Of a stretch of DNA of 6,249 nt, positions 2,004-6,249 are shown piece by piece. The stretch lies in IMG/VR virus record IMGVR_UViG_2778261571_000006; one strand, given 5' to 3'. Position numbers and translations under genes: made by a program. The notes beneath the pieces are model-generated. The model had not been told where the DNA came from. It searched no databases and saw nothing but the letters and a program-made list of their open reading frames with translations. Origin of the DNA: a virus (lineage: Duplodnaviria; Heunggongvirae; Uroviricota; Caudoviricetes). Position 1 is the first letter of the stretch. The number at the start of each line of letters is the position of its first letter.

Positions 2004-2138
2004 AATATCTTTGTATGGTATGTAGCTGACACCTTCCAGACCATCGTTACCACTTGGGCCAGTGATTAACACTGATGCTATAGCAATTGCTCCGCCACCA
2101 ATAGCAGCAGCAACGGCTTTTCGTAATGATGGAGGCAT
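1999..2138 (-). pseudogene. SAR endolysin (phage 21 R-type), 5' portion upstream of the IS2 insertion
   Basis: ORF 1821..2138(-). The N-terminus [47 protein letters not shown] is a Gly/Ala-rich signal-arrest-release segment. The start ATG at 2136-2138 overlaps the holin stop (TAATG). Removing IS2 and one TSD copy rejoins this to 305..667 in frame: 140 + 363 - 5 = 498 nt, i.e. 165 codons plus stop. Confidence 0.9.
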
Positions 2139-2353
2139 TATTCACCTCTCGCAGCCTTGCGCTTATCTTCTTTAATCTTGAAATAAAGGTTTGTCAGGTA
2201 CGTCAGCAGGCCAAATACCAGACTACCCAGCACACCGATTGCAGCCCACTGTGACGGAGTTACTCTATCGAGCAACTGTAAAAACCAGTAGCCAGCACTG
2301 CCTGCGGAGGTGCCGTAGGCAATGCCTGTTGAAATTTTGTCCATGGATTTCAT
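2138..2353 (-). CDS. Pinholin (phage 21 S-type class II holin) with dual start Met1/Met4
   Basis: ORF 2138..2410(-). The likely true start is the ATG at 2351-2353, preceded by GGAGGTGAGGCT, giving [26 protein letters not shown]…[12 protein letters not shown] (71 aa). Two transmembrane segments and a charged C-terminus. Met1-Lys-Ser-Met4 matches the antiholin/holin dual-start motif. Confidence 0.85.
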
Positions 2354-2453
2354 AGCCTCACCTCCGCACGGAACGGATGGCATAGTTATTATGTGTAGGC
2401 TTTCAGACACATCAATCAGAGCCTTAATTGATATATATGCTGGAGACGATGCA

Positions 2454-2479
2454 ATATAAAAAGCTCGCCGTAGCGAGCT
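2454..2479 (-). terminator. Candidate intrinsic terminator (minus strand) between the lipoprotein genes and the holin
   Basis: 7-bp GC-containing stem AGCTCGC / GCGAGCT (2462-2468 and 2473-2479) with loop CGTA, followed on the minus strand by TTTTATATT. The T-run is short and interrupted. Confidence 0.4.
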
Positions 2480-2604: not shown

Positions 2605-3000
2605 CTAACCTCGCATGTCAAAGCCAGATTTCTGAAAATCTCTGTAGACTTCCGGATTGTTGAAGGCCGGAAATTTGGCTTTATGAGCTGCGGACTTTAT
2701 CGCTTCGCAATAGGCTTTATCACCGTTACTGGTAGATATTTTTAACGCCGTGCCATCCTGAGAGAATTCCATATGCAACCTGCATTTTTTCCCTTTCCAG
2801 TTATGCGGCTCATCAAGTTTGGCATTAATTGCAGCTCTGATTCCCCGCGCTTGCGCCCCCCATTCATCCTGATCATCCCAGCGTCCTGAACTGCAACTAC
2901 CTGTAGCAGTAGTTTTGTGGCAATCTGAAGGGTGTAAAGGTGTGCATCCCGCAACAAAACCGACCCAAAAAGTCAACATAACGATTTTCTTTAATCCCAC
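2605..3000 (-). CDS. Outer-membrane lipoprotein with a divergent TolA domain III-like C-terminal domain
   Basis: ORF 2605..3000(-), 131 aa, GTG start preceded by GAGGAG at 6-nt spacing. Signal peptide MGLKKIVMLTFWVGFVAGC with lipobox VAG-C and Thr at +2. The C-terminal region (…KGKKCRLHMEFSQDGTALKISTSNGDKAYCEAIKSAAHKAKFPAFNNPEVYRDFQ…) has the same Cys, Gly-Asp and PEVY..F spacing as the neighbouring paralog and TolA. Confidence 0.7.
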   Translation of the reverse strand: MGLKKIVMLTFWVGFVAGCTPLHPSDCHKTTATGSCSSGRWDDQDEWGAQARGIRAAINAKLDEPHNWKGKKCRLHMEFSQDGTALKISTSNGDKAYCEAIKSAAHKAKFPAFNNPEVYRDFQKSGFDMRG

Positions 3001-3150
3001 TTCTTGCTCCTCAATCCATTAAAATCTCAGCAATAGTAGTTGTTACGTCCGCCACTGGCTCAGAGCTGACTATCCGCTAAATTTAGCTCAGTGCCGTAGC
3101 TGTGTCAGAACAAACCTAAGCCGAAACCGTTTATTACAAAACAATAAATA

Positions 3151-3579
3151 TCAGGGTTTAAAATCCAGCACCCCATTTTGAAATACTTTATATACTTCCG
3201 GCGAAGGGGGGGCAGGTATATCAGCATTCTTTATCGCATTCATCGCTTCACGACATAAATCGAGGTCTCCACTTTCTCTTTTAACCTCCAGTAGAAGGCC
3301 ATTCGGGGCCATATGCATTCTCAGTGTACACTCTTTTCCTGAATACTTACTCGCATCCCCGAACTGTTTTTCGATGGCGCTCTTGATTTGATGGGCATAC
3401 AGACGGATATCCTCACTAACATCAGAAGTACGTTCAGATGAACTCACATACTGTGTCTCTATTGCTTTATCGGAGTAATATGATGTACGGTCATGATAAT
3501 TTGTCGATACAGCATCAGTGCACCCGATAATAATCCCACTAATAATCAACGTAAGAATTGATGCGCTACGAAAACCCAT
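3151..3579 (-). CDS. Outer-membrane lipoprotein with a TolA domain III-like C-terminal domain
   Basis: ORF 3151..3579(-), 142 aa, ATG preceded by GAGGAAAA. Signal peptide MGFRSASILTLIISGIIIGC with lipobox IIG-C and Thr at +2, then a Ser/Thr-rich linker. The C-terminal about 85 residues (IRLYAHQIKSAIEKQFGDASKYSGKECTLRMHMAPNGLLLEVKRESGDLDLCREAMNAIKNADIPAPPSPEVYKVFQNGVLDFKP) align closely with the E. coli TolA C-terminus as I recall it (…QIKSAIESKFYDASSYAGKTCTLRIKLAPDGMLLDIKPEGGDPALCQAALAAAKLAKIPKPPSQAVYEVFKNAPLDFKP). Confidence 0.8.
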   Translation of the reverse strand: MGFRSASILTLIISGIIIGCTDAVSTNYHDRTSYYSDKAIETQYVSSSERTSDVSEDIRLYAHQIKSAIEKQFGDASKYSGKECTLRMHMAPNGLLLEVKRESGDLDLCREAMNAIKNADIPAPPSPEVYKVFQNGVLDFKP

Positions 3580-3608
3580 TTTTCCTCACATATGTCATAT
3601 AGTAAAGG

Positions 3609-3638
3609 ATTATATATACCGTTGTTTTGGACGCTCAA
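3609..3638 (-). promoter_or_regulatory. Candidate sigma70 promoter for the lipoprotein pair
   Basis: On the minus strand, TTGAGC (-35-like, 3633-3638) and TATAAT (3609-3614) are separated by 18 nt, about 30 nt upstream of the 3579 start codon. Found by eye only. Confidence 0.3.
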
Positions 3639-3696
3639 ACAGCGAATCAGATCAAATAAAACGCACATTTGTTAACATTTACACAAAGTCTGCGTG

Positions 3697-3717
3697 GGAT
3701 ATTCTGAAAGAATATCC
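3697..3717. promoter_or_regulatory. Perfect 21-bp palindrome GGATATTCT-GAA-AGAATATCC (candidate operator)
   Basis: 9-bp arms with a 3-bp spacer, about 60-100 bp upstream of the candidate lipoprotein promoter. No adjacent T-run on either strand, so it is not terminator-like. Confidence 0.35.
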
Positions 3718-4170
3718 ATAATGTGGAGAGAATCTATTGAAGTGCATGGTGCCGGGTGCCTCCCGGTGAACAAAATGTTCGTGATACCTGTCGGCGACAG
3801 AAAAGGTTAATGGTATCACCCCACCGCACAGGGGGATTCACCATGCAGGAGTTTTCTTAGCAAACTCACTGCGCGCCCGGCAACTCCCAACCACATAAAA
3901 TGCGGAGTTTGTGGTATTTATGCATATAACTCGCAGGAATTATCTTAAAAAACTGATGTCGATCCGGATTAAAAAGAAGCAGGTCATCATCAGATGACTG
4001 GAAAAAAGGAAAACAAAAAATACTCATCATACAGTTTTGATTGCAGGGATGAGCCTGCTATGCACAATATGCAGAATATAAGCAAGATAAAAATATGCAG
4101 GCATATTATTTCGGATTTTGTTATTAACACAACCTTTTTAATAATCATTTGGCATACAATAAACCAGCCC

Positions 4171-4196
4171 AAAAAGAACCGCCTAAACAGGCGGTT
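4171..4196 (-). terminator. Intrinsic terminator (minus strand) in the late-leader region
   Basis: 8-bp stem AACCGCCT / AGGCGGTT (4177-4184 and 4189-4196) with loop AAAC, followed on the minus strand by CTTTTTGGG. Confidence 0.5.
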
Positions 4197-4440
4197 GGTC
4201 AATACAAAGGATGCTTCGTCTTTATTATAGTAATCTGAGGCGTCGGGTGTCTTGTATCAGACAACATATTGTCCCGCTAAACAGCGAATTACAAACCACC
4301 CTGCAATGATCTCTCATCTCATTTTATATGAGTTGACGACATCAGGATAACGCATCATCAGCCCCTGCCAAGAAATATCAAAACTCCCGCCAGCAATGTG
4401 TTATCACAATATTGTAAAAAAAACACAGCACCGAAACTAT

Positions 4441-4479
4441 AACTGGTCTCTGTTATAATTTGGAGCAGAAAGACCAGTT
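4441..4479. repeat. 9-bp inverted repeat (AACTGGTCT … AGACCAGTT) enclosing a TATAAT hexamer
   Basis: Arms at 4441-4449 and 4471-4479; the 21-nt spacer contains TATAAT at 4454-4459. Confidence 0.3.
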
Positions 4480-4516
4480 GCCCAACTAGCAGCATTCTCC
4501 CCTGCTTTCCTGACGT

Positions 4517-4543
4517 AAAAAAACCGCATTAAGCGGTTTTTTT
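4517..4543. terminator. Bidirectional intrinsic terminator just downstream of the Q-like gene (tR'-like position)
   Basis: AAAAAAACCGC-ATTAA-GCGGTTTTTTT: a GC stem flanked by a 7-A run and a 7-T run, so it is U-tailed on both strands. It lies about 80-105 nt downstream of the stop at 4624 on the minus strand. Confidence 0.6.
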
Positions 4544-4623
4544 ACGATGTCCATGTCTGCAATCCGCCTCGCGATACAGCTTTGCGAAGCATAGCAAAAT
4601 TGAAGCAGTTTATACGTAAGAAA

Positions 4624-5166
4624 TCAAGCCATTTTCTCAGCAAATGATTCACGCATGGGAATATATAGGGCATACTCAGCAACAGCTAACCAATTAGCAA
4701 TCCGTTTTTCGCATGTGCTAAAACACCACTCTGGGTGTGCATCATTTAGCAATTCAGCCATTTTGCGCTTAGTCATCCCCCGCCCTTCATAGCGTTGCCG
4801 GAGAATGCAAATCAATCCTGGATGCTCTGCCAGCACCTCACTTATGACTCGATCAATACATAACGCCTCTGCATCAGTACAATGCGCCAGCCAGCTCTTT
4901 TGCTTGCCGTTGATCATCTCTCGCAAAAACGCTTCCAGCTCAGCTTTCTCTATTCCCGCTTTTTTCATTCTGCGCAGGGCTTCATTAATGGCTGTTTTCG
5001 TCAGTTTTTTGGATGCCAACAACTGATTGAACATATTCCCTGACCTGCCACCGCCAATATACGACCAGCGCCCCCACATACGTAGTTTTCCCTGAATCCA
5101 GACACTTTCCAGCGTGGTGAGGCGAAGGTGTTCTCCGCTTTTTCCTGTATTCGTTGGGTAAATCAT
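4624..5166 (-). CDS. Candidate late-gene antiterminator (Q-like, phage 82/21-type); family assignment uncertain
   Basis: ORF 4624..5166(-), 180 aa, ATGA-overlapped with the upstream gene. It is the last gene before the terminator and leader region that precedes the lysis genes, which is where Q sits in lambdoid phages. It has an RMWGRW motif reminiscent of the ERWGAW motif I recall in Q82-family antiterminators, and several Cys residues. Confidence 0.5.
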   Translation of the reverse strand: MIYPTNTGKSGEHLRLTTLESVWIQGKLRMWGRWSYIGGGRSGNMFNQLLASKKLTKTAINEALRRMKKAGIEKAELEAFLREMINGKQKSWLAHCTDAEALCIDRVISEVLAEHPGLICILRQRYEGRGMTKRKMAELLNDAHPEWCFSTCEKRIANWLAVAEYALYIPMRESFAEKMA

Positions 5167-5453
5167 AAATGACCTTTCTTTCTCCAGATTTCTTGTGTGC
5201 GAAAAACCCCTTCAGCATGCATCAGGCGCAATTCTTCTTTGGTGTAATCGCTGGTTTTTACCCGCCCGTCGATTAGATCGTGGCATGAGCTACAGGCTAT
5301 CGCCGCCTGCATATCGTGTGGTTTTGTCGCTGTTCCGCACGTCCCCGCCAGCCTGTAATGCGCCAGCACAGAGGTTTCGGGATTGTGATTGCAGTAGCCA
5401 GGGATTCTGATCTGGCACATCTGGCCTTTAGCCGCTTTACGTAAATTCACCAT
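5163..5453 (-). CDS. YbcO-like DUF1364 protein (Cys/His-rich, putative metal-binding nuclease of the nin region)
   Basis: ORF 5163..5453(-), 96 aa: MVNLRKAAKGQMCQIRIPGYCNHNPETSVLAHYRLAGTCGTATKPHD…ACSSCHDLID. This resembles the cryptic-prophage YbcO protein as I recall it (same length, conserved CQ.RIPG.CN.NPETSVLAH motif). Confidence 0.7.
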   Translation of the reverse strand: MVNLRKAAKGQMCQIRIPGYCNHNPETSVLAHYRLAGTCGTATKPHDMQAAIACSSCHDLIDGRVKTSDYTKEELRLMHAEGVFRTQEIWRKKGHL

Positions 5454-6052
5454 TACGCAAACTCCAGTAGTTGTGCGGCCACATTTTCAACTTCCTCCTG
5501 AGAGGAGAATTTACGGAACAGAATCCAGTTCCACAGCACATTCAGTACAGATTTATAAACCTGCTGAAACTCGACTTCGTCCATATTCGCAAAAGCGATG
5601 GATTTTGCCCGACGCCCACGGCTACCGTCCGGATAAATATGCTCGGTGTAAAATCCGGCCTGAATGGTTACCCACTCGCGGAAAGCCTCAAACGACTTTA
5701 GCAACGCCGTATCCCGGGTTCTACGAGTCGCAACGGTGTTAAGGTATTGCTCTGCGGCATCACTCAGGGCTGGCGTGTGTTCCCGACCAACTGATTCGCA
5801 CAGGTAATCAACGAAACCAGACAGCAGTTCTCGTTCGCGAGGCGTGATCGCCCCACCGACCGGAGTCCAGTAATCGAATCCCAGTTGCAGGAGTTTGAAA
5901 AAACGCTTGTGGAATGCGTAGTTACGCACACGCTTAAAGTCTGCGTGTATCCACTCACCTATTTTGATTTGATGCAGAAAATCGCAACTCTCCGGCGTCG
6001 CCGGGAGAAGTAAACCAGAAGAAGTTTGTTTGACCAGTTGTATATGCGCCAT
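5453..6052 (-). CDS. Phage nin-region protein of unknown function (possibly DUF1367 family)
   Basis: ORF 5453..6052(-), 199 aa. Its stop overlaps the start of the downstream DUF1364 gene, consistent with translational coupling. Long uninterrupted frame with codon usage matching its neighbours. The family name is from memory and is not verified. Confidence 0.6.
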   Translation of the reverse strand: MAHIQLVKQTSSGLLLPATPESCDFLHQIKIGEWIHADFKRVRNYAFHKRFFKLLQLGFDYWTPVGGAITPRERELLSGFVDYLCESVGREHTPALSDAAEQYLNTVATRRTRDTALLKSFEAFREWVTIQAGFYTEHIYPDGSRGRRAKSIAFANMDEVEFQQVYKSVLNVLWNWILFRKFSSQEEVENVAAQLLEFA

Positions 6053-6194: not shown

Positions 6195-6249
6195 GGTAAT
6201 GACTCCAACTTATTGATAGTGTTTTATGTTCAGATAATGCCCGATGACT
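6195..6249 (-). mobile_element. IS1 end (terminal inverted repeat), element continues beyond the window
   Basis: GGTAATGACTCCAACTTATTGATAGTGTTTTATGTTCAGATAATGCCCGATGAC matches the IS1 terminus including the InsB 3' end. Only this end is visible. Confidence 0.85.
6210..6249 (-). CDS. insB: IS1 transposase InsB, C-terminal codons only (partial at window edge)
   Basis: The minus strand reads …VIGHYLNIKHYQ* with the TAA stop at 6210-6212, which is the InsB C-terminus as I recall it. Confidence 0.7.
   Translation of the reverse strand, partial: VIGHYLNIKHYQ

Follow-up and report, generated by a model that had tools for sequence, protein, structure and literature searches.

Two adjacent genes for short lipoproteins with a TolA C-terminal domain

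We analyzed a 6,249-nucleotide stretch of DNA (the window) from the tailed-phage record IMGVR_UViG_2778261571_000006, in which two open reading frames (ORFs) that an earlier note had read as a pair of TolA-like lipoprotein genes occupy an accessory slot between the late-gene regulator, a Q-like gene, and the lysis cassette. The ORFs encode proteins of 131 and 142 amino acids (aa), which we use to name the 131 and 142 families, and lie where that note had placed them, on the minus strand, as do all relevant genes of the window. The corresponding region of strain HS30-1 lacks the insertion sequence IS2 and sits amid Rac-prophage remnants beside trkG, ompN and ydfK, and the element is therefore a decayed lambdoid prophage of E. 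coli at the Rac site. It is lysis-defective because IS2 splits its endolysin gene; both genes with a TolA domain III (TolAIII) are nonetheless intact.

The two proteins are strongly diverged homologs that share 29% identity over 141 columns (BLASTP, E-value (E) 2e-18). Each matches Pfam PF06519 (TolA C-terminal domain; gathering score 25 bits), the 131-aa protein with 54.6 bits (E 1.3e-14, profile positions 10-92 of 96) and the 142-aa protein with 82.6 bits (E 2.4e-23, positions 4-96 of 96). Against the solved E. coli TolAIII, the 142-aa protein matched at E 5e-28 and the 131-aa protein at E 5e-9; their identity to TolA residues 334-421 in an 88-column domain alignment was 59% and 31%, respectively. 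The description in the earlier note of two diverged TolAIII lipoproteins, the longer of them close to TolA, is thus borne out by homology, lipoboxes and fold, and the fainter resemblance of the 131-aa protein, which might have proved insignificant, is significant. Among the motifs quoted there as common to the 142-aa protein and TolA, QIKSAIE, CTLR and LDFKP are identical in TolA, whereas PEVY is common to the two phage proteins and reads QAVY in TolA; the distinct C terminus of the 131-aa protein, SGFDMRG, is as described.

AlphaFold2 modeled residues 41-131 of the 131-aa protein with confidence (predicted local distance difference test, pLDDT, 83-97 in the domain), placing helix 46-61, strands 72-79 and 85-93, helices 95-107 and 116-122 and strand 124-130 in that order, and did likewise for residues 52-142 of the 142-aa protein; the tether preceding the domain is predicted to be disordered in both. 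The top Foldseek matches of both models are all TolAIII structures. The 131-aa model superimposes on 3QDP with a root-mean-square deviation (rmsd) of 1.1 Å and a template modeling (TM) score of 0.92, and the 142-aa model on 2X9A_B with 0.6 Å and 0.96, chain B of this g3p-TolA complex being the form bound to g3p of phage IF1; both predicted structures follow the three-helix, three-strand α/β order of TolAIII. No significant match was found in the BFVD viral fold library. The TolA disulfide C363-C388 is retained, aligning with Cys73/Cys98 of the 131-aa protein and Cys84/Cys109 of the 142-aa protein, and cysteines fill both columns in 43 of 43 short lipobox proteins. Neither protein is a full-length TolA: at 131 and 142 aa versus 421 aa, they score 53.7 and 107.8 with the full-length model NF007065 against a cut-off of 213, matching only model positions 293-386, and neither gene lies in a ybgC-tolQRA-tolB-pal operon (K-12 tolA is b0739, beside tolR and tolB).

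At the start of each protein, a basic n-region and a hydrophobic core lead into a lipobox (MGLKKIVMLTFWVGFVAG/C in the 131-aa protein and MGFRSASILTLIISGIIIG/C in the 142-aa protein, the slash standing directly before the cysteine). The lipobox pattern [LVI][ASTVI][GAS]C, sought within the first ~35 residues together with those two features, falls at positions 16-19 (VAG/C) and 17-20 (IIG/C), respectively. Across 38 aligned family members, the predicted lipidated residue Cys19 is invariant and Gly18 nearly so, and Cys20 of the 142-aa protein is likewise invariant in its family alignment. In both proteins residue +2 is Thr, from which the Lol rule of E. coli predicts sorting to the outer membrane.

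Past the anchor, residues 20-44 of the 131-aa protein follow the pattern C-x-PLHPS-x-C-HKTTA-x-GS-C-SSGRWDDQ, which is almost invariant across genera and whose cysteines persist in representatives at 37-59% identity; this Cys-containing segment is a mark of the 131 family. AlphaFold2 did not place it confidently (pLDDT <50, residues 1-38). We considered the N-terminal segment of this protein (SSGRWDDQDEWG) as a TolB-binding epitope like that of colicin E9 and dropped the idea: only 5 of 16 positions match the E9 sequence, and the second Trp belongs to the domain, since it lines up with TolA Tyr340, where helix 1 begins.

Table 1. Features of the window; neighboring genes were assigned with Pfam
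Feature	Position	Strand	Basis
DUF1367 gene	5453-6052	-	Pfam
YbcO/DUF1364 gene	5163-5453	-	Pfam
DUF1133 gene, Q-like, weak antiterminator-Q (antitermQ) match	4624-5166	-	Pfam
Stretch of ~1 kb without a long ORF, one STnc100 RNA element inside	3580-4623
Promoter-like site TTGAGC-18-TATAAT (predicted), 30 nt upstream of 142-aa gene	3609-3638	-	consensus scan, 10/12 matches
142-aa TolAIII lipoprotein gene (142 family), ATG start after GAGGA, stop 3151-3153	3151-3579	-	ORF
142-aa protein, signal peptide and lipobox, aa 1-20, IIG/C	3520-3579	-	translation and alignment
142-aa protein, variable linker, aa 21-54, predicted disordered	3418-3519	-	pLDDT <50
142-aa protein, TolAIII domain, aa 55-142, disulfide Cys84-Cys109, β3 GVLDFKP, β2 LLEVKR	3154-3417	-
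Weaker promoter-like site CTGACA-17-TAAATT (predicted), between the two TolAIII genes	3080-3108	-	consensus scan, 9/12 matches
131-aa TolAIII lipoprotein gene (131 family), GTG start 6 nt past GAGGAG, stop 2605-2607	2605-3000	-	ORF
131-aa protein, signal peptide and lipobox, aa 1-19, VAG/C	2944-3000	-	translation and alignment
131-aa protein, Cys-containing segment past the anchor, aa 20-44 (TPLHPSDCHKTTATGSCSSGRWDDQ; Cys27, Cys36)	2869-2943	-	alignment
131-aa protein, TolAIII domain, aa 45-131, disulfide Cys73-Cys98, C-terminal strand SGFDMRG	2608-2868	-
Terminator-like GC-rich hairpin, then TTTTTATATT, between 131-aa gene and holin gene	2462-2479	-	terminator scan
P21-type holin gene	2138-2410	-	Pfam
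Lysozyme (endolysin) gene in two fragments, IS2 between	305-667 and 1994-2138	-
IS2 copy with insC/insD-type ORFs, inside endolysin gene	~668-1993	+
Rz (spanin) gene	39-320	-

Docking edges of TolAIII are retained to different extents

Binding of TolB, of colicins and of phage g3p are the only documented activities of TolAIII (PMC7391070; PMC3365938; PMC4339652). Its β3 strand (residues 415-421, with D418 and K420 critical) is the site for g3p, colicin N and the TolB N terminus (PMC4339652; PMC7391070), and colicin A docks on the β2 strand L375-P380 together with K368, K379 and K396 (PMC3365938). When these sites were mapped onto the window proteins, the β3 edge, APLDFKP in TolA, read GVLDFKP in the 142-aa protein, which equals TolA in 5 of 7 residues, and SGFDMRG in the 131-aa protein. 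The β2 strand, LLDIKP in TolA, read LLEVKR and ALKIST, and the three lysines K368, K379 and K396 corresponded to H, K, K and to E, S, H, respectively. Based on the mapped docking residues that each protein has kept or lost, the 142-aa protein could plausibly bind both ligand classes and the 131-aa protein could bind at most ligands of the β3 type. The suggestion in the earlier note that the two proteins have different targets is accordingly plausible, because the known ligand-binding edges are kept far better in the 142-aa protein.

The β3 pattern extends to the wider family, with D in 33, F in 37 and K or R in 34 of the 43 short lipobox proteins. A second position of interest is TolA Tyr353 (Y352 in the literature), for which a Y352H/V407E mutant suggested a part in TolB binding (PMC2707214). 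This column holds Tyr in 16 of 16 TolA orthologs and in 8 of 43 short lipobox proteins, and Gly or Asp in the window proteins. Loss of this Tyr in combination with a kept β3 edge lends weak support to a role as decoys that would spare TolB and the host Tol-Pal system.

The two genes appear to be independent cassettes, the 142 gene well diverged from tolA

The earlier note raised the possibility that the 142-aa gene is a recent capture from the host. To place its 59% identity, we took 31 of 80 TolA domain III loci found across Enterobacterales: TolAIII of 30 other species is 70-100% identical to that of E. coli, with values of 82-94% for further genera of Enterobacteriaceae and lower ones for Yersinia (78%), Pantoea (75-76%) and Sodalis with its relatives (70-77%), so the 142-aa protein falls below the whole range of the sampled Enterobacterales. 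In a codon alignment with K-12 tolA the proportion of synonymous differences was 0.72, which is saturated, and third-position identity over a wider alignment of 111 codons was 38%. A blastn search with 11-base words did not match host tolA, since the 142 gene found a counterpart in only 898 of 5426 complete E. coli genomes and tolA would be expected in all. An identity lower than in every Enterobacterales TolA sampled, saturated synonymous sites and the blank search against tolA together led us to reject recent capture from E. coli tolA. The nearest TolAs are those of Enterobacteriaceae (55-59%, versus 48-52% for Yersinia, Pantoea and Sodalis), and it is plausible that the gene derives ultimately from an Enterobacteriaceae-like TolA, followed by long or fast divergence.

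In a neighbor-joining (distance) tree of 89 domains over 88 columns with 500 bootstraps, the 142 clade received 99% and the 131 clade 96% support, and both lay outside the enterobacterial TolA cluster, with deeper nodes unresolved. Searching both proteins against all examined loci with tblastn returned two TolAIII genes only in the two loci that have the window's module (L001 and L002). We reject tandem duplication in this prophage in view of the separate, well-supported clades, the solitary occurrence of each family in every other context examined and the presence of exactly one TolAIII gene at each examined locus apart from L001 and L002. The sequence comparisons thus argue for two separately acquired, independent cassettes, and neither a local duplication nor the constant co-occurrence that the earlier note proposed to check describes the pair, which is adjacent where it occurs and not obligate.

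The pair is common as a unit. With at least 80% coverage and at least 99% identity, the 975-bp segment holding both genes is present in 776 of 5426 complete E. coli genomes (14%). The 131 gene has a match in 1269 of these genomes (784 records at at least 99% identity and 515 at 80-90%), with 536 of 1362 places on plasmids, and the 142 gene has a match in the 898 mentioned above, including ~115 records with diverged alleles. In other lambdoid prophages, diverged 142-type genes occupy the Q-to-holin slot singly, beside tRNA genes and a sialate esterase gene, and the 142 family occupied this late-region slot at 5 of 5 other places examined. This placement between Q and the lysis cassette, where related prophages hold only the 142 type, together with the finding of either gene in 1 of 50,697 phage records (mEp460_ev081), fits a lambdoid moron, an autonomous accessory gene of the late region.

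The 131 type has a different range of settings. It is solitary on ~600 plasmids. In the transfer region of one of these, the conjugative IncK2/Z plasmid pMbl536 (locus L098, 6965-7396), it directly follows the relaxase gene; on the virulence plasmid pO157 (L003, 6001-6432) its neighbor is a truncated nikB, a remnant of the relaxase-adjacent placement. On chromosomes of other genera it is likewise solitary in each of the four contexts examined: at a prophage edge in Citrobacter freundii, and with ordinary chromosomal genes around it in Enterobacter kobei, Serratia marcescens and Klebsiella oxytoca. In Serratia (L011, 6957-8736) the gene is followed by GmrSD-type and HEPN genes, and in E. kobei (L009, 2373-4200) Mrr-like and AbiV-HEPN genes lie ~2 kb away, which in the few loci seen hints at a defense-island setting. 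A third TolAIII type of 144 aa (35% identity) resides on Klebsiella IncF plasmids next to a thioredoxin-fold gene (L099, 6812-7246). In PLSDB, 917 plasmids carry a TolAIII gene, and 488 of these are typed as conjugative.

Both genes are under purifying selection and belong to a large lipoprotein family

Queried with the 131-aa protein, a full HMMER scan over 1.84 billion representative proteins returned 130 relatives. Most have a lipobox and a length of 120-150 residues, and full-length TolAs scored below these short relatives; a lipobox-like motif was present in 53 of 70 short representative homologs. PHROG 5772, whose function is listed as unknown, holds both window proteins (E 7e-65 for the 131-aa protein and 2e-62 for the 142-aa protein). 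Both thus belong to a large, uncharacterized family of short TolAIII lipoproteins, of which the domain and the database family are already known.

The two branches differ in breadth and constraint. The 131 family comprises 370 homolog clusters from Citrobacter, Enterobacter, Klebsiella, Raoultella, Serratia and Escherichia; the mature sequence hardly varies, and the ratio of nonsynonymous to synonymous substitution rates (dN/dS) is 0.07-0.12 at dS 0.5-1.1. The 142 family comprises 46 clusters, every source-named one from E. coli or Shigella, and evolves faster (dN/dS 0.25-0.36), with 0.32-0.59 in the linker and 0.09-0.29 in the domain. Judging from these comparisons, the 131 family is the more widespread and more constrained lineage and seems not to be an old offshoot of the 142 gene, the other half of the origin suggested in the earlier note. 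One 142-family protein, P0143, joins the N-terminal half of a diverged 2013C-3181-type allele to a C-terminal domain identical to that of the window protein, which indicates recombination between alleles inside the gene.

RefSeq treats these genes differently and labels the 142-aa gene 'tolA'. In HS30-1 the Prokaryotic Genome Annotation Pipeline (PGAP) calls the 142-aa ORF a 261-nt tolA pseudogene 'missing N-terminus' (L001, 12741-13001) and starts the 131-aa gene at an internal ATG, giving 124 aa and losing the basic n-region of the signal peptide (L001, 12195-12569). Both calls look like annotation artifacts. The 142-aa protein passes the TIGR02794 cut-off (75.6 versus 59.45) through its C-terminal part alone, which probably explains a 'tolA' label that looks wrong and conceals a complete gene. 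The PGAP call, taken with the decay of the prophage, would fit a reading of both genes as non-functional remnants of host tolA, but we consider this very improbable: both ORFs are complete and possess a lipobox, a signal peptide and a ribosome-binding site, dN/dS stays far under 1 (0.07-0.36 over the two genes), the cysteines are invariant, DNA similarity to tolA is absent, and the pair persists at high identity in 776 genomes. ORF integrity, selection, the invariant cysteines and the dissimilarity to tolA contradict a pseudogene.

Regulatory elements and repeats around the genes

The putative promoter TTGAGC-18-TATAAT is kept in the M6 prophage and not upstream of more distant 142-family genes. 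Upstream DNA of the 142 gene is common to close relatives only (~190 nt, with the M6 prophage), and ~45 nt upstream of the 131 gene are common across contexts. Upstream of the 142-aa gene, at 3690-3876 on the minus strand, is a full-length STnc100 small RNA element (Rfam RF02076, 86.6 bits). In the Q-to-holin region of related prophages this ~200-nt element is present in 3-5 copies that flank the 142-family gene on both sides (L004, 2943-3922 and 5682-5894; L005, 5369-5831 and 6553-6726), and such repeats may be a recombination substrate for the exchange of accessory genes. At ~4517-4590, just downstream of the Q-like gene, there is a GC hairpin between runs of A and T (aaaaaaaccgcattaagcggttttttt). 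Its isrK-like Rfam matches, one on either strand, are weak and below threshold, and it is probably the late-promoter terminator acted on by Q. The N-terminal part of the endolysin resembles the signal-anchor-release type, and window positions 6195-6249 match DNA adjoining an IS1A transposase gene in L001.

A proposed coreceptor decoy model and the explanations that compete with it

Conjugative pili are the receptors of filamentous phages, and TolAIII is their coreceptor. On the strength of the fold, the anchor, the kept docking edges, the selection, the presence of such genes on pilus-bearing plasmids and the known dominant action of TolAIII in the periplasm, we tentatively propose, at somewhat less than even confidence, that both proteins are outer-membrane-tethered TolAIII decoys that catch colicin translocation domains and the g3p of filamentous phages, the two cassettes widening the spectrum. 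Levengood-Freyermuth and colleagues reportedly found in 1993 that periplasmic TolAIII also gives colicin tolerance. In this model, the genes would act as independent morons, flanked by the Q-like antiterminator gene on one side and by the lysis genes on the other. Their products, with a probable anchor in the outer membrane's inner leaflet, would each bear a folded copy of TolA domain III on a flexible tether of ~25-35 residues and so stand where colicin translocation domains and the N1 domain of g3p enter the periplasm. There they would bind TolA-seeking ligands by β-strand addition and retain them at the outer membrane, such that energized host TolA would never be engaged and the cell would be tolerant to group A colicins and filamentous phages. 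With both docking edges in the 142-aa protein, and a modified β3 edge plus the Cys segment in the 131-aa protein, the two might cover different ligands with no need for obligate pairing. Outer-membrane location, ligand binding, a protective phenotype and expression in the lysogen are all steps that we infer.

If this proposal is correct, it would describe immunity by means of a tethered copy of a host periplasmic coreceptor, unlike receptor blocking or intracellular defense. The pili of conjugative plasmids attract filamentous phages that depend on TolA, and the proposal could account for the frequent presence of such genes on these plasmids; it could also account for why an intact pair is kept in a dead prophage of 14% of complete E. 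coli genomes; it would also bear on colicin- and phage-based antimicrobials and on M13-type delivery tools in natural isolates. With greater doubt, we extend the idea to short TolAIII lipoproteins in general, which may form a widespread 'coreceptor decoy' class of immunity, mobile among prophages, conjugative plasmids and chromosomal islands of Enterobacteriaceae, that would protect against pilus-attacking filamentous phages and against group A colicins or related bacteriocins. Here, loss of the Tyr would spare Tol-Pal, and the pair in the window would represent complementary specificities.

Several observations weigh against the decoy proposal. Lying immediately upstream of the holin gene, the slot entails strong late transcription under Q, which fits a role in lysis too, and the promoters upstream of both genes are consensus matches only, in upstream DNA kept in close relatives only. 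A β3 edge identical to that of TolA may bind TolB as well and harm the host. The evidence on Tyr353 comes from a double mutant whose TolB binding was only ~six-fold weaker (PMC2707214), and the residue counts for β3 and Tyr353 are not phylogenetically independent. PADLOC-DB 2.0 holds no family that matches either protein at E <=0.1, and we found no study of these lipoproteins in the literature on phage, prophage or plasmid TolA-like proteins, decoys and homologs. Finally, a gene of prophage CP-933O that the study's authors call TolA-type, a possible homolog of the present genes, rose 32-fold on ciprofloxacin (PMC11125564).

This induction supports the main rival to the decoy model, in which the proteins serve the phage by sabotaging Tol-Pal: expressed late under Q antitermination with holin, endolysin and spanin, they would bind the TolB N terminus, uncouple TolA from TolB-Pal and weaken the outer membrane, aiding lysis or vesicle release. 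The placement of the genes between the Q-like gene (DUF1133/antitermQ) and the P21-type holin gene, the late-region slot of the 142 family at all five other places, and the match of the 142-aa β3 strand to the TolB site of TolA in 5 of 7 residues all speak for this scenario, as does the finding that recombinant TolAIII exported to the periplasm (pTA3Y) perturbs the envelope and is used for making cells leaky (PMC6195910). We nevertheless judge it unlikely. The 131 family is found mostly outside prophages, on chromosomes and plasmids, where help with lysis would make no sense and where it is under strong purifying selection, and both genes have stayed intact in the window's prophage despite the IS2-split endolysin, as they have in 776 genomes at an identity of at least 99%. 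In addition, a terminator-like hairpin separates the TolAIII genes from the holin gene, the Tyr implicated in TolB binding is lost, and lambdoid phages already possess a spanin (Rz).

A second alternative is that the proteins benefit the carrier as envelope modulators other than decoys, whether by tuning Tol-Pal, by vesiculation, by serum or bile resistance (compare the Bor lipoprotein of lambda) or, for the plasmid copies, by helping conjugation or by exclusion. Lambdoid phages carry lysogenic-conversion genes in the Q-to-lysis slot, so the genes sit in the usual place for such functions, and the position of the 131 type directly after a relaxase gene on the IncK2/Z plasmid, its remnant on pO157 and the thioredoxin-fold neighbor of the third plasmid type could be taken in the same sense. 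Nothing specific points to any such role, however; TolB, colicin and g3p binding remain the sole activities on record for TolAIII, and the family-wide retention of the β3 edge points instead to a ligand bound by β-strand addition. We regard this explanation, too, as improbable.

Comparison with known systems

The window proteins fall in PHROG 5772, and NCBI names the 131 family 'cell envelope integrity TolA C-terminal domain-containing protein'; neither grouping comes with a mechanism. Their closest relative of known structure is E. coli TolA domain III (~334-421; PDB 1TOL, 2X9A, 3QDP/3QDR, 1S62), which they resemble in fold (rmsd 0.6-1.1 Å), in the disulfide and, for the 142-aa protein, in the β3 strand. 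They differ from host TolA in having neither the transmembrane domain I nor the long helical domain II, in lying outside the tol-pal operon and in the replacement of Tyr353. Whereas TolA spans from the inner membrane, the window proteins would be lipobox-anchored from the outer-membrane side, which would make energization by TolQR impossible. Recombinant periplasmic TolAIII (pTA3Y, a fusion to the ribose-binding-protein signal; Levengood-Freyermuth 1993; Wan and Baneyx 1998) is a precedent for a free TolAIII domain that interferes with Tol-dependent processes, but it is a soluble, overproduced laboratory construct of host sequence, and the window proteins are natural, diverged, predicted to be lipid-anchored and devoid of the Tyr linked to TolB.

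Small lipoproteins of prophages and plasmids that are thought to shield their carrier at the envelope include Cor (phi80, N15 and HK022), Llp (T5) and TraT (F-like plasmids). None is known to have sequence or fold kinship with the window proteins, and Cor and Llp block an outer-membrane receptor such as FhuA, whereas the window proteins are proposed to be periplasmic coreceptor mimics. In the superinfection immunity conferred by Ff phages, g3p binds TolA and thereby stops a second infection. The interaction between g3p and TolAIII is targeted there as it would be by decoys, with the roles reversed: in Ff immunity a phage ligand occupies host TolA, and in our proposal a copy of TolA would occupy the phage ligand.

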